From IMG/VR virus record IMGVR_UViG_3300032270_000355: a stretch of 64,000 bases of DNA, one strand, 5' to 3'. The stretch's first letter is position 1. Each line of letters starts with the position of its first letter. Both the position numbers and the translations under genes were made by a program. Positions 14,855 to 47,379 of the stretch are shown here, piece after piece. This stretch comes from an uncultured virus (IMG/VR IMGVR_UViG_3300032270_000355). Taxonomy: Duplodnaviria; Heunggongvirae; Uroviricota; Caudoviricetes. The notes beneath the pieces are model-generated. The model made no database searches. It saw nothing but the letters and a program-made list of their open reading frames with translations, and was not told the DNA's origin.

Positions 14855-14914
14855 TTATTTTCCTATAAGTTGTAATAAGGTTAAATTATATGGCTGGCAC
14901 ACTACGTGGCTGGC

Positions 14915-15213
14915 ATAATAAAGTGGTAGGTTATTCTGTTACGAGGAAACCTACCGAAACCCTAAGCAGTGTTTAGGCTGCTAATGCGAACTGTGAGTCG
15001 TTTGCGTTTACTTTTGTTTAGTTTTTATGTCTACTCTGACAAGTTGTCCACTTCTGTACTTGTTGCCCTGTCGAAACCTAGTCACCCCCATCAGAAGCAT
15101 ACCCATTAGAGCCCATAAAATGGTTTCTTTCATCTAACACATACACTTCTGGTGGAGGTGGGGAGAATCGAACTCCCGTCCAGAACACGTTTCTAGTTGC
15201 TTCATACAACCAT
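14915..15213 (-). ncRNA. ssrA: Circularly permuted (two-piece) tmRNA; tag ANDSQFALAA
   Basis: Acceptor piece (T-arm GGGAG-TTCGATT-CTCCC, CACCTCCA-CCA ending 15150) lies upstream of the coding piece (GGGGGTGAC starting 15089); G3.U70 pair; tag codons 15005-14973; outer ends approximate. Confidence 0.92.
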
Positions 15214-15219
15214 ATCACA

Positions 15220-15248
15220 ATTATACATTATATATTCTTGCGAAACAA
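15220..15248 (-). promoter_or_regulatory. sigma70-type promoter for tmRNA
   Basis: TTGTTT-N17-TATAAT. Confidence 0.6.
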
Positions 15249-15259
15249 ATTTATTTGTT

Positions 15260-15910
15260 TCAAATACCCTTTAGATTTTTATAATCTAATCTTAGACTTT
15301 TAAATCCATCGATCCAGTCATCTCGTTTTTCGACAAATATTTTTGTCGGATTATCGTCTATGCCCATTATGATAACAAGTCTCCCTACTGGAATTCCTGT
15401 TAGTTCTTCGAATGCCACAGCGTATGCTGCAGTCTGCATAAAATAGCCATGGATGTGATCTCTAGTCTTTGGTTTGCTTGAAGTTTTAAAATCAATAACT
15501 GAGAGTTTACCTTCATACTCAGCAATACAATCAACAGTTCCTGCAACCTCAAGATGATCAGAATACAATGGTGTTTCTAACGCATGTATGTTATCTATTT
15601 TTTCGAGGTAGGGTCTAATTCTTCCAAATATCTCTGAATCGAACGTGTCAGGTTCACAGAGTTCACTGCGGAGATATGATTCACAATATCCATGGACTTT
15701 TGTTCCACGTTTACTTGCTTGGCTGGAGATTCTATTTGCTTCTGCTTCCCCGACTCGTTTTCGCCATTCGAGGATTCCTTGTTTTGAGTGGAGTCCTGTA
15801 ATGGTGGTGATGCTTGGATAGGCTCGACCCGACGGGGTTTTGTAAAGTCTAACTTGGTTAGAGTCGGTACGTTCCAATTTGGGAAGATCATGATGTATAA
15901 ATGTTGGCAT
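15260..15910 (-). CDS. PD-(D/E)XK (Cas4-like) exonuclease
   Basis: YPSITT..RGTKVH..AGTVDCIAEYEGKLSVIDFKTS..YFMQTAAYA. Confidence 0.85.
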   Translation of the reverse strand: MPTFIHHDLPKLERTDSNQVRLYKTPSGRAYPSITTITGLHSKQGILEWRKRVGEAEANRISSQASKRGTKVHGYCESYLRSELCEPDTFDSEIFGRIRPYLEKIDNIHALETPLYSDHLEVAGTVDCIAEYEGKLSVIDFKTSSKPKTRDHIHGYFMQTAAYAVAFEELTGIPVGRLVIIMGIDDNPTKIFVEKRDDWIDGFKSLRLDYKNLKGI

Positions 15911-38545: not shown

Positions 38546-38621
38546 TGGTGCCCTCAGTCGGTTTCGAACTGACCACCTTCTGATTACTAAACAGATGCTC
38601 TACCAAATGAGCTATGAGGGC
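38546..38621 (-). tRNA. tRNA-Thr(AGT)
   Basis: Cloverleaf, loop TT-AGT-AA, encoded CCA. Confidence 0.85.
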
Positions 38622-38643
38622 GATATAACTACTTATGTGCTCT

Positions 38644-38718
38644 TGGAGCAGGATATCGGATTCGAACCGATGACATTCACGTTGGCAACGTGACATTCTA
38701 CCACTGAATTAATCCTGC
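38644..38718 (-). tRNA. tRNA-Gly(GCC)
   Basis: Cloverleaf, CCA. Confidence 0.92.
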
Positions 38719-38719
38719 A

Positions 38720-39193
38720 CTATGCAGCCATGTACGACTTATATCTATCTGCAGCATATGAAGCAGCAAATGCTCTTGGCTTTACCATTGGTACTACGTT
38801 ACACATACCTTTGATATAACCGACTGCTTCATTAATAACACAAGAAGAACCATGCATTTCATTCGGGTTGATGTCCAAATGAACTTGCACTTCACGATCT
38901 TCTAATACATCATGCAACTTTAGATACAACTCTGCAATTTTATAAACTTCGTTCATTAAACGCATACGTGGCTTGTCTCGTTTCTTATCCCAGTCACGTT
39001 CACGTTGTACTTCACCAAAAATCTTACAGCCATTGTTTCCATTGATATGAACAACAACAACCATAATGTAATCTGCGTACCAATCTTTTCCTATTAAGAA
39101 TCGTTCAGAGTCACCACCAATATAGATCTTGGTTTCTGGAGTCTGTGCCAAGATGAAATCTCTAACTTCATCTATGTTGATTGCTTTACGCAT
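38720..39193 (-). CDS. RNase H-like YkuK (DUF458) protein inside the tRNA array
   Basis: IYIGGDS..RLMNEV..VHLDIN..KPRAFAASYAAD. Confidence 0.8.
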   Translation of the reverse strand: MRKAINIDEVRDFILAQTPETKIYIGGDSERFLIGKDWYADYIMVVVVHINGNNGCKIFGEVQRERDWDKKRDKPRMRLMNEVYKIAELYLKLHDVLEDREVQVHLDINPNEMHGSSCVINEAVGYIKGMCNVVPMVKPRAFAASYAADRYKSYMAA

Positions 39194-39227
39194 AACTACC
39201 TCTTTTCTTCTTACCTCATTAAAAATT

Positions 39228-39301
39228 TGGAGCAGAGTGAGAGAATCGAACTCTCAACCGAAGATTGGAAATCTGCTGTTTTACCATTAAACTAACCCTG
39301 C
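39228..39301 (-). tRNA. tRNA-Gly(TCC)
   Basis: Cloverleaf, CCA. Confidence 0.9.
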
Positions 39302-39308
39302 AAAAACT

Positions 39309-39382
39309 TGGCATCCCGATAGGGACTCGAACCCCAACCAACAGTTTTGGAGACTGCTATGCTGCCATTACACCATCGAGAT
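39309..39382 (-). tRNA. tRNA-Trp(CCA)
   Basis: Cloverleaf, CCA. Confidence 0.9.
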
Positions 39383-39386
39383 ACAT

Positions 39387-39461
39387 TGGTGGTGATGAGT
39401 GGATTCGAGCCACTGACCTACTCCGTATGAAGGAGTTGCACTACCGCTGTGCTACATCACC
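39387..39461 (-). tRNA. tRNA-Met(CAT), probably elongator
   Basis: Cloverleaf, paired G1-C72. Confidence 0.85.
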
Positions 39462-39673
39462 ATTGTTGAGAGTACTGTTGTATGTTTAAGCACGTGTTGC
39501 AAATTAGACGTTTAAGGTCATTCAGTTTCTGAACTTTGCCACCGCTCTCCTAATCGTATCGTTCACGTAGCATCAGCAAGCTACTATTTCCCAGATATTG
39601 GGCTGACTTGATAAGGATGGTTATCTTCCATAACAGTTTGGATTGCTTACTCTTTCGCACAAACTCTCAACAA
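39462..39673 (-). ncRNA. Candidate structured ncRNA closed by a 12-bp terminal stem
   Basis: attgttgagagt...actctcaacaat fills the gap between two tRNAs. Confidence 0.55.
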
Positions 39674-39750
39674 TGGTGCCCCAAGCGAGACTCGAACTCG
39701 CAAAATTTGGCTTCTAAGACCAACACGTATACCAATTCCGTCATCGGGGC
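39674..39750 (-). tRNA. tRNA-Leu(TAG), short variable loop
   Basis: 77 nt cloverleaf, CCA. Confidence 0.88.
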
Positions 39751-39757
39751 AAATGCT

Positions 39758-39863
39758 TTCTTTGCGTCGTGGTAATTATAGTACATCAGTTTACTTCTGG
39801 TTTGTGTACATCGCACCAGTTTCTCCATCACACGTACCCTCCACCCACTTGCCACGCAAAGAA
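39758..39863 (-). ncRNA. Candidate structured ncRNA
   Basis: Terminal stem ttctttgcgt...acgcaaagaa. Confidence 0.45.
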
Positions 39864-39996
39864 CTGTCGTGTTGCTAACGCTGGTTAGGTAGACCCATGA
39901 TTTAACTCATGCCCTATTCAAAGGGAGAACCATCCTACTGATCGTCAATCAGTTTCTCTCGTGCGGATCACACTAGCAGTGATTAGCTGCAGGGCT

Positions 39997-40072
39997 TGGT
40001 AGCGGGACTTGGATTCGAACCAAGGATGGCAAAGGCTTATGAGACCTCGCTGGTGACCAGACCCTTCCCGCA
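39997..40072 (-). tRNA. tRNA-Met(CAT), initiator-like
   Basis: Unpaired 1:72, GCGGGA acceptor, reduced D-arm. Confidence 0.75.
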
Positions 40073-40086
40073 TCATTTAATATATA

Positions 40087-40161
40087 TGGCTCCAGTGGCT
40101 GGGATCGAACCAACGACCAATTGATTAACAGTCAACTGCACTACCGCTGTGCTACACTGGA
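40087..40161 (-). tRNA. tRNA-Asn(GTT)
   Basis: Cloverleaf, CCA. Confidence 0.92.
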
Positions 40162-40247
40162 ATAATAAAATCGTGGCAGGTGAGGTATCTAGTCATTGTC
40201 TAGCCAACGACTTGCCCATTCTCCTTTTACTTTCCTTACCACAAAAC

Positions 40248-40322
40248 TGGCGACTCGTGGGAGAATCGAACTCCCATAAGCGGATAGACAATCCGCTGTA
40301 ATAACCATTATACTAACGAGCC
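40248..40322 (-). tRNA. tRNA-Asp(GTC)
   Basis: Cloverleaf, CCA. Confidence 0.92.
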
Positions 40323-40328
40323 AAAAAC

Positions 40329-40421
40329 TGGTGGAGCAACTTGGAGTCGAACCAAGATTGTTTACCCAGAGGGACGAGATTTACAGTCTCGGGATGCACA
40401 CGCCATAGCATCAATTGCTCC
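40329..40421 (-). tRNA. tRNA-Tyr(GTA)
   Basis: Long variable arm, CCA. Confidence 0.88.
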
Positions 40422-40427
40422 ATATGA

Positions 40428-40549
40428 TATTAGTTTAGATGACGCACTATTTGCTATGCTCAACGGGATATCCAGCTGGGTTTACCGTTTCTGTACATAG
40501 TTACTTAGAGTTGACGTTTACTCAATGGCTTACGTCACCTAAACTAATA
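40428..40549 (-). ncRNA. Candidate structured ncRNA
   Basis: 17-bp terminal stem tattagtttagatgacg...cgtcacctaaactaata. Confidence 0.55.
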
Positions 40550-40554
40550 CCACA

Positions 40555-40773
40555 TTTAATTATACTGGGATGTTTGACAAAAATAACAGTTTTGAACCTG
40601 CCCTACCATGCCGTCCATGGACTTGTTTGTCAACCACATTACGTTCCAACTTTATCCAGCGTCCTCCTGATATGATCTCAAGGTTTCGTGTAACTTAGCA
40701 GAGCCTAGCCGTCACTAGGATTTAGTTCTCTACATAAATCACCTACTGGTATTGGCAACCCAATACAATTAAA
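40555..40773 (-). ncRNA. Candidate structured ncRNA
   Basis: 15-bp terminal stem (minus strand tttaattgtattggg...cccagtataattaaa) with G.U pairs. Confidence 0.55.
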
Positions 40774-40775
40774 TC

Positions 40776-40851
40776 TGGTACTCGGTGGGGGAATCGAACC
40801 CCTCCTTCCTGCCGTGAAAGGGCAGTGTCCTAGCCGATAGACGAACCGAGC
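40776..40851 (-). tRNA. tRNA-Glu(TTC)
   Basis: Cloverleaf, CCA. Confidence 0.92.
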
Positions 40852-41066
40852 ATGGTGGTAGTTTTTAGAGAACTACCAAACTCTTGGCTGACCTTTGGTC
40901 ATTTAATGTTTCCTGCTCAGCGTTTTGCATTTCTGCGTGCTTTGCGTTTTGAAACAACCTAGTGGGAGAATGTAAGCGAGTTGCAACATTCAAGCCACTT
41001 GCCCTATGCTTTGTTTCGCAACAAAGACTCAGAAGGGACTTTTGAATTCCTAACCAACTAGACTAT

Positions 41067-41095
41067 ATTATACACCATCTAGGCATTGGTGTCAA
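41067..41095 (-). promoter_or_regulatory. Internal sigma70 promoter in the tRNA array
   Basis: TTGACA-N17-TATAAT. Confidence 0.8.
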
Positions 41096-41121
41096 CAAGT
41101 ATTTTAACTAACTTGCAACTT

Positions 41122-41195
41122 TGGAGTAGGTGACAAGAATCGAACTTGCTTCCATGGGTTTGCAATCCAGTGCCTGTCCAACTGGCTCCACCTAC
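41122..41195 (-). tRNA. tRNA-Cys(GCA)
   Basis: Cloverleaf, U73, CCA. Confidence 0.88.
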
Positions 41196-41202
41196 ATATC
41201 TC

Positions 41203-41280
41203 TGGTACCCCGAGTGAGATTTGAACTCACAGAATTTCTCCTTTTGAGAGAGACGACTTTGCCAATTTGTCCATCGGGGC
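41203..41280 (-). tRNA. tRNA-Leu(CAA), short variable loop
   Basis: 78 nt cloverleaf, CCA. Confidence 0.88.
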
Positions 41281-41283
41281 ATT

Positions 41284-41358
41284 TGGTGGGCTGAGAGAGA
41301 ATTGAACTCCCACTCGATCGATTATGAGTCGACTGCTTTACCATTAAGCTACCAGCCC
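41284..41358 (-). tRNA. tRNA-Ile2/Met(CAT), probably lysidine-type Ile2
   Basis: GGGCTGG acceptor, CTCATAA loop; third CAT tRNA. Confidence 0.75.
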
Positions 41359-41364
41359 AAACTC

Positions 41365-41439
41365 TGGCACGGCATGCAGGAATCGAACCCACATTCGTAG
41401 GGTAGAAGCCTACTGTATTATCCATTATACTAATGCCGT
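41365..41439 (-). tRNA. tRNA-Arg(TCT)
   Basis: Cloverleaf, CCA. Confidence 0.9.
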
Positions 41440-41446
41440 ATAAACT

Positions 41447-41523
41447 TGGTGCGGATACCGAGACTCGAACTCGGAGAACTCAGATTTTAAGTCTGATATG
41501 TATACCAATTCCATCATATCCGC
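41447..41523 (-). tRNA. tRNA-Leu(TAA), short variable loop
   Basis: 77 nt cloverleaf, CCA. Confidence 0.88.
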
Positions 41524-41529
41524 AAACTC

Positions 41530-41619
41530 TGGTGGAAGATCAGGGAGTCGAACCCTGTGACCCAATTCCTTGAATCTACAGTTTAGCAAACTGCTGCATT
41601 ACCGTCCTGCCCATCTTCC
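41530..41619 (-). tRNA. tRNA-Ser(GCT)
   Basis: Long variable arm, CCA. Confidence 0.9.
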
Positions 41620-41624
41620 TAACT

Positions 41625-41699
41625 TGGCACCCAATGAGAGAATCAAACTCCCAACCCAGCGTTCGTAGCACTGTGTGATATTCATTTCACCAATCGGGT
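41625..41699 (-). tRNA. tRNA-Arg(ACG)
   Basis: Cloverleaf, CCA. Confidence 0.85.
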
Positions 41700-41704
41700 A
41701 TATC

Positions 41705-41796
41705 TGGCGGAAGACAGAGGAGTCGAACCCCATCCCATTTCTGAGAACCGTGTTTTCAAGGCACGTCGCAGGACCAACCCCGCTGCATTATCTTCC
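41705..41796 (-). tRNA. tRNA-Ser(TGA)
   Basis: Long variable arm, CCA. Confidence 0.9.
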
Positions 41797-41802
41797 TTAA
41801 CT

Positions 41803-41877
41803 TGGTACATCGTGACAGTTTCGAACTGCCGACCCTCTCGGTGTAAACGAGACGCTCTACCACTGAGCTAACGATGC
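41803..41877 (-). tRNA. tRNA-Val(TAC)
   Basis: Cloverleaf, CCA. Confidence 0.92.
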
Positions 41878-41885
41878 AAAAACTT

Positions 41886-41960
41886 TGGTGGACCGAGGGG
41901 GAATCGAACCCCCAACTGTGCCTTGCAAGGGCACTGTGTTCCCAATTATACCATCAGCCC
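41886..41960 (-). tRNA. tRNA-Ala(TGC)
   Basis: Cloverleaf, G3.U70. Confidence 0.92.
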
Positions 41961-41967
41961 AAAATAC

Positions 41968-42041
41968 TGGTCTCCGATGCAAGAATCGAACTTGCGCTCC
42001 ATGGTCCCAAACCATGAGTGATACCATTTCACCAATCGGAG
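41968..42041 (-). tRNA. tRNA-Pro(TGG)
   Basis: Cloverleaf, CCA. Confidence 0.92.
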
Positions 42042-42049
42042 TAAAAACT

Positions 42050-42123
42050 TGGTGCCCCATGACAGAATCGAACTGCCGTAACCTGATTACAAAACAGGTG
42101 TAATACCATTATACTAATAGGGC
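42050..42123 (-). tRNA. tRNA-Thr(TGT)
   Basis: Cloverleaf, CCA. Confidence 0.92.
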
Positions 42124-42129
42124 GAAACT

Positions 42130-42204
42130 TGGTTCCCGATAGTGGTAACGATCCACTCGCCTATCGCTTATCAAGCGATTGCTCTACCTCTGAGCTAATC
42201 GGGA
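42130..42204 (-). tRNA. tRNA-Ile(GAT)
   Basis: Cloverleaf, atypical T-loop ATCGTTA. Confidence 0.85.
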
Positions 42205-42211
42205 CTATTCT

Positions 42212-42287
42212 TGGTGCTGCCTAGTAGAATCGAACTACTTTCCGAGGATCTTCAGTCCCCTGCTATGACCACATCAGCTAAAGCAGC
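42212..42287 (-). tRNA. tRNA-Phe(GAA)
   Basis: Cloverleaf, CCA. Confidence 0.9.
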
Positions 42288-42289
42288 AT

Positions 42290-42364
42290 TGGGGTGTCGT
42301 ATGAGAATTGAACTCATGATGACGGAATCACAATCCGTAGTTTTACCACTAAACTAACAACACC
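42290..42364 (-). tRNA. tRNA-His(GTG)
   Basis: Cloverleaf with G-1:C73. Confidence 0.9.
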
Positions 42365-42369
42365 ATAAT

Positions 42370-42443
42370 TGGTAGGAGCACAGAGAATCGAACTCTGGTT
42401 AATAGGTTAAAAGCCTACTACTTTACCACTAAGTTATACTCCC
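42370..42443 (-). tRNA. tRNA-Lys(TTT)
   Basis: Cloverleaf, CCA. Confidence 0.92.
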
Positions 42444-42521
42444 ATATAAAATCACACTTCGGATACTGTACTAAACAGAAACTATCCACCACAGGCTATC
42501 CTGCTGAAATGTATTTTTATA

Positions 42522-42595
42522 TGGCAGAGGGTACTGGGATCGAACCAGTGATGACAGAGTCAAAGTCTGTAGTGTTACCGCTACACTAACCCCCA
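42522..42595 (-). tRNA. tRNA-Gln(TTG)
   Basis: Cloverleaf, CCA; first tRNA of the array. Confidence 0.9.
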
Positions 42596-42665: not shown

Positions 42666-42705
42666 TAAAACAAAAAACCCTCTAACTTTTCAGGTAGAGG
42701 GTTTT
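42666..42705 (-). terminator. Attenuator intrinsic terminator
   Basis: AAAACCCTCTA-loop-TAGAGGGTTTT followed by TTGTTTT. Confidence 0.88.
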
Positions 42706-42730
42706 GGGAAATAAACTTTGTCTGTTTACT

Positions 42731-42856
42731 TTACTTTCCAAAACCCCCACTGTCCAACTCAATCGCAAATGTATACTGTGGGCGTGAGCATGTCCAACCA
42801 CTATTAACTAGCGGTAGATGCTTTCTGCTTAACGAGGATATCATTTTCGAGTTCAT
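42731..42856 (-). CDS. Attenuator leader peptide (41 aa, all 20 amino acids)
   Basis: MNSKMISSLSRKHLPLVNSGWTCSRPQYTFAIELDSGGFGK*; leaderless start; 3' end overlaps the antiterminator arm. Confidence 0.8.
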   Translation of the reverse strand: MNSKMISSLSRKHLPLVNSGWTCSRPQYTFAIELDSGGFGK

Positions 42857-42862
42857 TGTAGA

Positions 42863-42891
42863 ATTCTATTCTTCTTTCGGATTAAAGTCAA
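42863..42891 (-). promoter_or_regulatory. sigma70 promoter of the leader/tRNA operon (leaderless)
   Basis: TTGACT-N17-TAGAAT; ATG at 42856 is 7 nt from the -10 box. Confidence 0.8.
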
Positions 42892-44456: not shown

Positions 44457-45434
44457 TTATTTTTGATTATTTTTGATTAAAACTGTATCAACCAGAGGTT
44501 GCCACTGTTTTTCACGGGACTTTACCCACTCTGCCATTGATTTAGGATTCTGTAAGTCTGTTCTTTCTAAGAGTAGATTATCATAGAAGATAGCCTTTGC
44601 TTCATCCGACTTCATAGCCTTTGTGAACTCTCTAGTGTACCATTCAACTACATCGTTTGGGGTGCCAGCTGGAAGCATAAGAGCCCACATACCTGTAATG
44701 TTGAAATTTGGTAGAGCAGTATCCAACAATGGAATTCCTGGGAATTGACGCATTGGAGGTGGAGCACTTAGAGCAATAATATTAATGCGACCATCTTTGT
44801 AAAGAGCATTTGCAACTAGAGATGGAACGATCGCATAACGAACATTACCACTAGCAACATCTACCAGTGCATCGACTGGACCTTTGTGGTCAACTCGAAC
44901 TACTCCATCTTTACCTTCTGGAAATTTAACACGAGCAGAAATACCTTCATAAACTAAACGTGCGCCACCAGATGCAGCAATAGAAACCTTATCATTCTTT
45001 AGAGAATCTAAAAATTGTTTTGGAGTTTTGGCTGGATCGTTTGGGTGTGACGCAATCACGAATGGACTAGATGCAATGTGTGTTGGGTAAACAAAACTGT
45101 CTGTAGTATAACTACGACCATTACCTTGGACTTGAACTTTGTCCATTGCTGCAATACCTGGAACTGATACATTGGTAACAGAGTAACCATCAGCTGGTTT
45201 CTTACTCAACTCCTCAGTGCCGATAACACCACCTGCGCCTGGACGATTGATGATAATAAACTTAGCACCAGTGTTCTTCTCAACTTCTTTTGCTAATACT
45301 CGGAATGACAATTCATTGACACTTCCAGGTGTCCATGCCATTATCGCTTCAATAGGTTTTGTTGGTTGCCACTGAGCGAATACAGTGGATGATACAACTA
45401 ATAAACTACCAATAACAATTGTTTTTAAATTCAT
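44457..45434 (-). CDS. Tripartite tricarboxylate transporter substrate-binding protein (Bug/TctC)
   Basis: Signal peptide, PTKPI..NRPGAGGVIG..PADGY..HKG..LPAGTP. Confidence 0.9.
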   Translation of the reverse strand: MNLKTIVIGSLLVVSSTVFAQWQPTKPIEAIMAWTPGSVNELSFRVLAKEVEKNTGAKFIIINRPGAGGVIGTEELSKKPADGYSVTNVSVPGIAAMDKVQVQGNGRSYTTDSFVYPTHIASSPFVIASHPNDPAKTPKQFLDSLKNDKVSIAASGGARLVYEGISARVKFPEGKDGVVRVDHKGPVDALVDVASGNVRYAIVPSLVANALYKDGRINIIALSAPPPMRQFPGIPLLDTALPNFNITGMWALMLPAGTPNDVVEWYTREFTKAMKSDEAKAIFYDNLLLERTDLQNPKSMAEWVKSREKQWQPLVDTVLIKNNQK

Positions 45435-46407: not shown

Positions 46408-47379
46408 TCAATTAGGTTTAGGTAGAGACTCTACATAAGGTTTCCATTGTTTTCTTAAGTCTACCATTTCCTTTAGAGTGTTTTCTGGACCAATGGATTT
46501 CTTATCTAGAAAGATGTAGTTGTCTTCCATAAATTTCTTATACTCGTCTGTGCTAATTGCTTCGACTACTTGCTTTACATACCATTCCACTATCTCTGGT
46601 GGAGTCTTTGGTGGTAACATAAAGTTCCAGCATCCATACATATTCAATCCTGCAACATAGTCTTTTGCCAGAGGAATATTATCAGGAATTCCTTTTAGTC
46701 TGCGTTCTCCTGCAACTGCCAACATCTTAACCTTACCCGAATTTATAATTGTTAGTGCTGGTGCAATTGGCATGATTCCAAACTCTGTTCCTGTTTTTCC
46801 ATCAAACTGTGCAACACTTACTGCTGCTGGAACTGGACCTTTGAATGTTATTGGCATCACTTTGGTTTTATCTATCTTTAGATTTTGTGCAAAGTACTCG
46901 AAAGTTAGATAATGTGCAGATCCACCAACAGCAAAATTAATTTCTCTGCCAGTTTTAACCTCTGCGATTAATTCTTGTAGAGTGTTAACTTTACTTTCTT
47001 TGCTGGCTATAAACACCATTGGACTCTTGCCGATGTTTGTTACAAAGGACAGTTCAAGTGGACTTCTTTTTATTACATGGCTGAAGTGTGAATCTGAAAA
47101 TAAGAAACCACTAACACATGATGGGATACCAACTGTGTATCCATCTGGTTTCGCTTCTAGTAAATCTCTAAGCATGATATTACCATCAGCACCTGCTACA
47201 TTCTTAATAGAAAAATTAGCAATATCTTTACTCTCAATATGTTTAGAAATTAATCTTGCTGTTAGTTCTCCACCAGATCCTGCTGATGTCGGTAATAACA
47301 TAGTTATCACTTGTTTTGGATTTGGTTCCCATGCATTAGCCATGAGAGGAAATAACATCAACAACAAAAACCGCTTCAC
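46408..47379 (-). CDS. Bug/TctC substrate-binding protein (paralog)
   Basis: NVAGADGNI..PDGYT..FKGPVPA..LPPKTP. Confidence 0.88.
   Translation of the reverse strand: MKRFLLLMLFPLMANAWEPNPKQVITMLLPTSAGSGGELTARLISKHIESKDIANFSIKNVAGADGNIMLRDLLEAKPDGYTVGIPSCVSGFLFSDSHFSHVIKRSPLELSFVTNIGKSPMVFIASKESKVNTLQELIAEVKTGREINFAVGGSAHYLTFEYFAQNLKIDKTKVMPITFKGPVPAAVSVAQFDGKTGTEFGIMPIAPALTIINSGKVKMLAVAGERRLKGIPDNIPLAKDYVAGLNMYGCWNFMLPPKTPPEIVEWYVKQVVEAISTDEYKKFMEDNYIFLDKKSIGPENTLKEMVDLRKQWKPYVESLPKPN

Follow-up and report, generated by a model that had tools for sequence, protein, structure and literature searches.

The tRNA array and its spacers

The stretch of DNA analysed here, referred to below as the window, comprises 64,000 nucleotides of an uncultured virus of the Caudoviricetes (IMG/VR record IMGVR_UViG_3300032270_000355). 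ARAGORN detected 26 tRNAs and one tmRNA in the window, every one of them on the minus strand, and the tRNA array spans positions 38546-42595. The open reading frames (ORFs) around the array match the gp32, gp59, gp53, T4 baseplate, tail-tube cap and T4 RNase H families; judged by these surrounding proteins, the phage, which comes from lake water, is T4-like. A first-pass annotation had pointed to the long spacers between the tRNAs at 39462-41060 as candidates for stem-closed non-coding RNAs. By comparison with related uncultured phages, each spacer named there is a conserved RNA module that carries compensatory changes. The modules and the elements adjoining them are as follows (nt, nucleotides; bp, base pairs).

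39462-39673, minus: S1, about 212 nt, from tRNA-Leu(UAG) to tRNA-Met
39751-39863, minus: S2b, about 110 nt, with a closing stem of 9-10 bp
39864-39996, minus: S2a, a multi-hairpin module of about 133 nt directly after tRNA-Met, always beside S2b
40162-40247, minus: S3, a motif of about 75 nt, from tRNA-Asn to tRNA-Asp
40422-40553, minus: S4a, about 125 nt, ending 6-8 nt before tRNA-Tyr
40548-40776, minus: S4b, about 225 nt, 11 helices, directly 3' of tRNA-Glu
40776-40851, minus: tRNA-Glu(UUC), paired through its 3' ACCA with the S4b tail UGGU
40852-40992, minus: S5b, the remaining leader up to tRNA-Glu, two hairpins
40993-41044, minus: S5a, a leader motif of about 50 nt (AAAGUCC-NN-CU.AGUC, hairpin, GCAU-NN-GGCA)
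41095-41067, minus: sigma-70-type promoter, predicted by a consensus scan (TTGACA-17-TATAAT, 12/12), between tRNA-Cys and tRNA-Glu
41125-41195, minus: tRNA-Cys(GCA), found by the Rfam match only (41.2 bits), its anticodon loop UUGCAAA read by eye

Relatives of the region were taken as the best 80 of 338 IMG/VR loci anchored on a ribonuclease (RNase) H-like ORF at 38720-39193, and tRNA arrays comparable to that of the window were present in all 80. The assignment of 41125-41195 as tRNA-Cys agrees with the order Cys-gap-Glu in these relatives. By BLAST and nhmmer, S4b was found in 36 of the 80 loci, S1 in 15, S2a and S2b in 14 each, S4a in 13 and S3 in 12. Since each module occurs in a different subset of loci, the array is a mosaic of modules. 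Larger sets of S4b, S3, S4a and S2b sequences (alignments A8, A9, A10 and A11, respectively) were fetched with search patterns. As a control for pairing, the 3' partners were slid along each alignment and the share of standard pair cells was recounted.

Folding and strand of the spacers

The spacers were confirmed at exactly the positions given by the first-pass annotation. Terminal stems had been claimed for four spacers, and all four close when the minus strand is folded.

39462-39673, minus: 15 closing pairs; minimum free energy (MFE) -54.2 against -43.5±4.4 for shuffles, z -2.45
39758-39863, minus: 9-10 closing pairs; z -1.84
40428-40549, minus: 19 continuous closing pairs; z -4.89
40555-40773, minus: 14 closing pairs; z -3.63 (plus strand -0.62)

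When 40422-40775 was folded as a whole, z was -5.75. Two further segments, 39864-39996 and 40173-40242, had been described as multi-hairpin; they proved to be conserved and covarying in relatives, although their fold energy is ordinary (z +0.26 and -1.71, respectively). The segments 39758-39863 and 39864-39996, treated earlier as separate items, always occur together in relatives and may be one RNA.

It had also been proposed that the structure lies at the RNA level in the direction of the tRNAs, with mismatches in the stems of 40428-40549 and 40555-40773 becoming G.U pairs on the minus strand. Compensatory changes in relatives bear this out for S4b, S4a, S3, S2b and S1, and the cells holding G.U outnumber those holding A.C by 363 to 19 in S4b, 86 to 4 in S4a, 61 to 4 in S3 and 57 to 0 in S2b. 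With G.U so far above A.C in each of the four large alignments, the folds can be assigned to the RNA of tRNA sense.

At the gathering threshold of Rfam 15, tRNAs and the tmRNA were the only matches. The scan suggested by the first-pass annotation found no Rfam family matching the spacers, even at E≤5, where the lone overlap with a spacer in 39200-41300 was chrB-a at 18.5 bits (gathering score 43.9, E 3.4). The families without a match include GOLLD, ROOL, Y RNA, 6S, T-box, self-cleaving ribozymes and group I introns. When the whole 2.1-kb region was compared by blastn with 50,697 phage records, tRNA matches alone were obtained; S4a and S4b searched by themselves gave a single match, at chance level.

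The S4b module

The MFE of S4b is -65.3 kcal/mol on the minus strand and -42.4 on the plus strand. Helix P1, of 15-16 bp and prolonged onto ACCA/UGGU, closes a two-arm junction that leads to two three-way-junction domains; in the first, P2 and P3 enclose P4 and P5, and in the second, P6 encloses P7 and P8. The junction strands AG, CAYGAAA, AC and GUAAUGU are invariant, and two apical loops read GACGR. In 27 distinct sequences obtained through the protein anchor, the blocks CCAGUAGG, CAYGAAA, ACGCUGG and GUAAUGU were invariant and lay between helices rich in compensatory changes. A covariance model of S4b (R1) scored 195-240 bits on the model strand and 15-27 bits on the opposite strand at the same loci.

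A pattern made from three of the invariant blocks retrieved 93 stretches from IMG/VR viral contigs, and 81 copies, 63 of them distinct, were aligned by R1 (A8). Standard pairs filled 97.1% of 3259 pair cells, compared with 33-41% when the partners were slid by 1-3 columns. Changes on both sides were seen in 39 of the 52 pairs, and none of 500 shuffles reached any of five measures. Among the unpaired columns, 29 of 136 are at least 95% conserved, a figure partly owed to the way the search pattern was built. In A8, the conservation of the three pattern blocks follows from how the sequences were fetched, but the 27 sequences obtained without a pattern had already shown these blocks to be invariant. 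A search for tertiary or pseudoknot covariation in S4b returned non-nested column pairs of which the top ones reflect two main subtypes and not structure.

The boundaries of S4b are tied to the neighbouring tRNAs. In 46 of 62 distinct copies, it starts on the final A of the CCA of a tRNA lying upstream (tRNA-Glu in 35, Gln in 9, Ile and Leu in 1 each), and the UGGUA conserved as its 3' tail is paired with the ACCA upstream. Downstream of the same 62 copies, the tRNA called was Tyr in 24, Glu in 15, Asp in 9, Cys in 4, Lys in 3 and Asn in 1, with none in 6. In most copies not followed by a second module, at most 6 nt separate the 3' end from the next tRNA. Behind tRNA-Glu, the usual content of the gap is S4b and then one of two alternative second modules, which have a common outer stem (UUAGUUUAG...CUAAACUAA) and a different interior; some phages carry just one part.

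Copies of S4b that follow a hairpin instead of a tRNA have CACU/AGUG or CUCU/AGAG, a compensatory change, or else UACU/AGUG at the same positions. These replaced pairs indicate that P1 truly runs through the position of the CCA. In four distinct variants, TTGACA-17-TATAAT stands directly upstream, so that the start would fall at P1, and a U-run and tRNA-Asp follow.

As a side observation, the roughly 30 nt that precede S4b in copies without an upstream tRNA (L097, L141, L164, L142, L138 and similar loci) form a hairpin of 12-13 bp with a 7-nt loop. The 3' strand of this hairpin overlaps the 5' strand of P1 (CAUAUAGU...ACUAUAUG), and the two pairings, as judged by eye, are mutually exclusive.

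S4a, S3 and the modules near tRNA-Met

In S4a, the closing stem leads to a three-way junction with the conserved unpaired strands GUAAGC, GUAAC and GCAAAUAGUGC. In the initial eight sequences, the closing stem had 23 bp and 13 of 40 pairs were compensatory. A loose pattern then gave at least 118 stretches; 80 loci were fetched, nhmmer confirmed 53 of them, and 27 chance matches were dropped before alignment. With 35 distinct full-length sequences (A10), 97.4% of the cells were paired, compared with 28-49% after sliding, and 26 of 35 pairs were compensatory. At least 95% conservation was found in 20 of the 65 unpaired columns, and the protein-anchored sets had already shown the conserved unpaired blocks of S4a, like those of S4b, to be invariant. 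In copies of S4a placed directly behind tRNA-Glu (for example, in L196 and L209), the stem starts within UACCA and finishes in UGGUA.

The S3 motif consists of P1, an almost invariant purine-rich strand UAAGGAAAGUAAA, P2, a variable hairpin and GAUACC..ACCUGCC, in this order. An exact 25-base pattern, for which no chance matches are expected, retrieved 72 IMG/VR stretches with 47 distinct sequences. Most of them lie 6-14 nt from the flanking tRNAs, on either side and next to tRNAs of many identities, and a few copies are located away from tRNAs. In the alignment of 43 distinct sequences (A9), 96.7% of the cells were paired, compared with 34-58% after sliding, and 8 of 17 pairs were compensatory.

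Diverged copies of S3 were identified by BLAST in three cultured phages: Ralstonia phage RSP15, Vibrio phage 1.121.O and Cobetia phage Carin-5. The RSP15 copy lies within the tRNA region of that phage and has AAACGG...CCGGCC in place of AAAAGG...CCUGCC, a change from A-U to C-G at a predicted P2 pair. The same change is found in 1.121.O, and Carin-5 keeps the form of the window at that pair. The Carin-5 copy sits between protein genes, outside a tRNA array, with a TATAAT-containing promoter-like site before it and a terminator, hairpin plus U-run, after it.

Mimicry of a host RNA by S3 was considered and rejected, the exact pattern having 0 matches in 185,579 prokaryotic species genomes (one each), a search in which diverged copies could be missed. 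Complements of the purine strand with up to 2 mismatches occur nine times in the window, against 3.3 expected, and the sole exact one is S3 itself.

In S2b, the internal strands AGUGGGUGGAGGG ... UAUAAUUACCAC and the 3' tail GAAAGCAUUU are invariant. This invariance is partly by construction, as the strands served as the search pattern, but it was already present in eight sequences found by BLAST. In 18 sequences (A11), 99.2% of the cells were paired, compared with 36-63% after sliding; 10 of 20 pairs were compensatory, including 8 of the 10 pairs of the closing stem. S2a and S2b may constitute one RNA of about 245 nt closed by UGCU/AGCA, four pairs that never vary.

The closing stem of S1 has 14-15 bp and is prolonged onto the CCA of tRNA-Leu and the U+GG at the beginning of tRNA-Met. 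Conservation is seen in the 5' domain and in a 3' segment (CUUAAAC...AACAGUAC), and the hypervariable middle has been swapped wholesale between relatives. The search pattern used for S1 was over-strict and gave 9 stretches. In 16 sequences (A13), 11 of 21 predicted pairs were compensatory, nearly all of them in the 15-bp closing stem. A pairing between the loop and the 3' tail (ACUGUU with AACAGU) is possible, one compensatory variant having been seen by eye in L020.

The leader and its promoter

From the promoter at 41095-41067, a start is predicted near 41060, the upper end of the region first noted. The profile of promoter and leader recurs in 45 of the 80 related loci (nhmmer, third iteration of the S5 search), an iteration that wandered onto promoter sequences. 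S5a is a small motif for which the evidence is modest: in 17 distinct sequences (A14), three of five outer pairs were compensatory (CCCU/AGGG, CCAC/GUGG, CCUC/GAGG and CCUU/AAGG). S5b is conserved in the closest relatives only (query positions 78-273, 92-99%, four loci, BLAST), and the fold of the whole leader spacer has a z of -1.5.

A shared design of the spacers

A collection of 284 distinct inter-tRNA spacers of 60-450 nt was obtained from the window and the 80 related loci. A strong duplex between the 5' and 3' ends (≤-12 kcal/mol) was found in 76 of the 284 spacers (27%) and in 50 of 1413 pairings with mismatched partners (3.5%), a comparison that is not a probability, as the spacers are related to each other. 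The sense strand of the spacers pairs better than the antisense strand. Each closing helix, formed by the two ends of its own module, starts where the upstream tRNA ends in CCA and terminates 1-14 nt short of the next tRNA or module; in S1, S4a and S4b, the helix base-pairs with that CCA end. The helix of S4a has 19 bp in the fold of the window and 21-23 in the alignments, that of S4b 15-16 bp plus the 4 bp of ACCA/UGGU, that of S1 14-15 plus 3, and that of S2b just 9-10. The spacer ends abut tRNA ends, as first described, which would fit a release by tRNA processing.

The loop GACG is the second commonest tetraloop of the spacers, with 18 distinct hairpins compared with 22 for GAAA. Loops containing it number 71 in sense and 14 in antisense, counts that are inflated by families of related hairpins. 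Apical GACG(R) loops were also noticed in modules that are unrelated to one another, namely in P4 and P7 of S4b, in S2a, in variants of S3 and in the alternative second module. They may be a shared protein-binding loop. In S4b, they are located as follows.

about 40712-40707, minus: GACGR loop of P4
about 40614-40610, minus: GACGR loop of P7

Other features of the window

Outside the spacers described above, the following features were recorded.

14882-15262, minus: permuted (two-piece) tmRNA of the beta type, tag peptide ANDSQFALAA
38720-39193, minus: RNase H-like protein of 157 amino acids (PF04308, phrog_11311), inside the array between two tRNA-Gly genes
41709-41796, minus: class-II tRNA-like gene, within the 103-nt gap 41700-41802 from tRNA-Val to tRNA-Arg
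44457-45434 and 46408-47379, minus: two TctC/Bug-type periplasmic solute-binding proteins (PF03401), unusual auxiliary genes

The receptors of the TctC type and the beta-type tmRNA suggest a betaproteobacterial host. Relatives of the RNase H-like ORF were confirmed in 338 of 339 candidate IMG/VR stretches, where it keeps company with tRNA arrays, and the protein is a candidate RNA-processing partner of the array. The gene at 41709-41796 was missed by ARAGORN and by the Rfam tRNA model; the tRNA-Sec model gave 31.3 bits (gathering score 47, E 6e-5). It is kept in 28 of the 80 related loci, and its anticodon loop, CUUGAAA, suggests a tRNA-Ser(UGA).

The 78-nt spacer between tRNA-Gln and tRNA-Lys (42444-42521, minus) is a single long hairpin, with a z of -5.55 on the minus strand and -3.57 on the plus strand, and is present in just 1 of the 80 relatives. 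On the 5' side of the first tRNA, again on the minus strand, a promoter-like site (42891-42863) precedes a 41-codon ORF in which all 20 amino acids occur (42856-42731), a hairpin and U-run of the intrinsic-terminator kind (about 42715-42680) and a second promoter-like site (42660-42632). The arrangement at 42680-42891 looks like a leader-peptide attenuator.

Interpretation

The spacers are probably a series of individual non-coding RNA genes, structured and functional, namely S1, S2a/S2b, S3, S4a, S4b and the leader motif, and the modules are judged to be putative new RNA families in a T4-like context. The analysis obtained conservation, covariation, strand, boundaries that abut tRNAs, exchange of modules between phages and relatives that bear promoters. 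The predicted promoters of some relatives of S4b, together with the promoter-like site and terminator around S3 in Carin-5, mark the modules as discrete RNA genes.

According to this proposal, modules and tRNAs would share minus-strand transcripts started by promoters upstream of the array and by that at 41095-41067. The modules would be freed when RNase P cuts the downstream tRNA at its 5' end and the upstream tRNA is matured at its 3' end, and host RNase III may also cleave the closing helices of 17-23 bp. The freed RNAs would be capped by their stems and thereby resistant to exonucleases. Their invariant unpaired junction and loop sequences would have their effect in trans during infection, the likeliest mode being protein binding as scaffolds or decoys.

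Several points tell against this proposal. The sequence conservation seen in A8, A9, A10 and A11 is partly due to the patterns with which the sequences were fetched, the A8 alignment was fitted to the model structure and is hence biased toward it, and the kinship of the sequences makes the shuffle controls overstate significance. S2a is the weakest of the set, with 6 of 32 predicted pairs compensatory (A12, 15 sequences) and a z of +0.26, and the single-sequence folds of S3 and S2b are unexceptional (z -1.71 and -1.84). Release and stability are deduced from sequence alone, the pairing of stems with the CCA of tRNAs could equally serve tRNA maturation in cis, and no partner protein or target of the modules was identified.

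A wider reading may be entertained tentatively, in which tRNA arrays serve as a platform for the expression and release of a swappable library of structured RNAs, carried as cassettes with CCA/UGG-closed stems. S4b would then be a new complex RNA class with an activity of its own: its invariant junctions are of the grade known from riboswitches and ribozymes, it is nearly always linked to tRNA-Glu, and it possibly binds tRNA-Glu or a host factor of defence or translation. S3, as a purine-rich RNA resembling the Shine-Dalgarno sequence in phages of Beta- and Gammaproteobacteria, would titrate a factor that recognises ribosome-binding sites.

Among the rival explanations, the one that survives best, though unlikely, is that the spacers act in cis for processing or insulation, their stems aiding the folding of the precursor, so that misfolding of adjacent tRNAs is avoided, or presenting sites for RNase III or RNase P, and that the excised pieces are waste. 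The closing helices do pair with the upstream CCA and finish at the next tRNA, stems of 17-23 bp are similar to those that RNase III processes in rRNA operons, closure by stems is widespread among the spacers (27% versus 3.5%), and the middle of S1 is freely replaceable. Insulation, however, needs neither invariant unpaired sequence nor multi-helix junctions, and 29 of the 136 unpaired columns of S4b and 20 of the 65 of S4a remain conserved at 95% or more. One and the same module also occurs beside different tRNAs, and S4b and S3 are also seen as free-standing genes that have a promoter of their own and lack a tRNA close upstream. A purely cis-acting role accounts for the stems but not for the conserved junctions or the free-standing copies.

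It is much less probable that S4b is a tRNA-Glu-binding RNA that works like a T-box, in which the conserved, single-stranded GAA of J4/5, a Glu codon, would read the anticodon and the UGG tail would pair with NCCA, so that tRNA-Glu is sensed or sequestered. J4/5 reads CA[ACGU]GAA in 81 of 81 aligned copies, the UGGU tail pairs with ACCA, and in 50 of 62 copies the closest tRNA called on one side is tRNA-Glu (upstream in 35, downstream in 15), a linkage that can be plain shared ancestry. The GAA, however, is constant whatever the neighbouring tRNAs, including in copies flanked by Cys/Asp or others, and covariation of the specifier type is absent; a T-box-like specifier was rejected on these grounds and for want of a match to the T-box or any other Rfam family. 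The UGG/CCA pairing is present but is formed in cis with any upstream tRNA, Gln, Ile and Leu included, and other pairs substitute for it when the tRNA is absent.

DNA-level elements that mimic RNA stems, such as miniature inverted-repeat mobile elements, recombination cassettes or endonuclease targets, would agree with the mosaic presence and absence of modules among close relatives and with terminal inverted repeats of 10-23 bp. This explanation is highly improbable and was rejected, since G.U, which is an A.C mismatch on the other strand or in DNA, exceeds A.C in all four large alignments (for example, 363/19 in S4b and 57/0 in S2b) and S4b reaches at most 27 bits on the opposite strand. The internal helices also covary, the termini of the four modules are unrelated to one another, and the spacers contain no transposase or homing-endonuclease ORF. 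Decayed tRNAs, tRNA-like remnants or short protein-coding genes are equally hard to credit: phage arrays do hold missed or odd tRNAs, such as the tRNA-Ser-like gene in 41700-41802, T4 rnaC ends in a T-arm-like hairpin, and mechanically called ORFs of 25-78 amino acids, short and overlapping on both strands, lie across the spacers, but ARAGORN and the models of the Rfam tRNA clan are blank inside the spacers at E≤5, the sole T-loop-like word lies in one non-conserved loop of S4b, and the alignments show indels of 1 or 2 nt and paired substitutions and not codon-wise change.

As the window shows, the tRNA-cluster niche of T4 holds, in a large group of uncultured T4-like phages from lakes, at least six unrelated RNA families with structures supported by covariation. 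S4b is as elaborate as a riboswitch or a small ribozyme, and S3 is open to direct study in the cultured phages of harmless marine hosts that it reaches. The common design of the terminal helix points to one testable rule, by which stem-capped small RNAs of phages would be made without separate promoters and terminators. RNAs acting on host factors would represent a new layer of phage-host interaction; if they were processing aids only, the modules would still explain the long conserved spacers in phage tRNA arrays.

Relation to known systems

The small stable RNAs of the T4 tRNA cluster have long been known, and the statement that T4 has stable non-tRNA RNAs there was confirmed, as the annotation of T4 lists rnaC and rnaD in the cluster as 'small, stable RNAs' and assigns no function to them. 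Like the modules of the window, rnaC (species 1) and rnaD (species 2) are non-tRNA RNAs, about 120-140 nt long, that lie on the tRNA strand beside tRNAs within the tRNA cluster of a T4-type phage. No homology with them in sequence or structure was found: when R1 was run on the T4 region with filters off, there was no match at rnaC or rnaD (best 9.9 bits, inside segB), and the nhmmer profiles of six modules gave at best 3.5 bits (E 0.19) in that region. The T-arm-like hairpin in which rnaC ends is lacking in the modules of the window, which differ further in forming at least six families, in their larger size (up to about 225 nt) and in their closure by long terminal stems paired with the CCA end.

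The modules were not found described in the open-access literature searched. A covariation-based catalogue lists 8,495 candidates for structured RNAs of DNA viruses from IMG/VR (Fremin et al. 2023, PMC10690425). Some of the modules may be contained in it under anonymous numbers; stem-closed modules punctuated by tRNAs are not described in the accessible part of its text.

The RNAs GOLLD and ROOL are 500-800 nt long. In one report (PMC5737381), they are described as complex structured RNAs that are often near tRNAs, occur in (pro)phages and are possibly co-transcribed with them. Both are Rfam families without a match here, whereas the RNAs of the window have 50-225 nt and are placed precisely between tRNAs.

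In bacterial rRNA operons, stems are processed by RNase III, and mitochondrial transcripts follow the tRNA-punctuation model. The likeness lies in an RNA that is excised from a polycistronic precursor by way of a flanking helix or by tRNA-processing enzymes. The products here would be small RNAs and not rRNA or mRNA. In E. coli, tRNA operons give rise to a spacer-derived regulatory RNA, the 3'ETS-leuZ sponge, which is released by processing and acts in trans. RNAs of this type are short, largely unstructured sponges that act by base pairing, whereas the modules of the window are highly structured and have conserved junctions.

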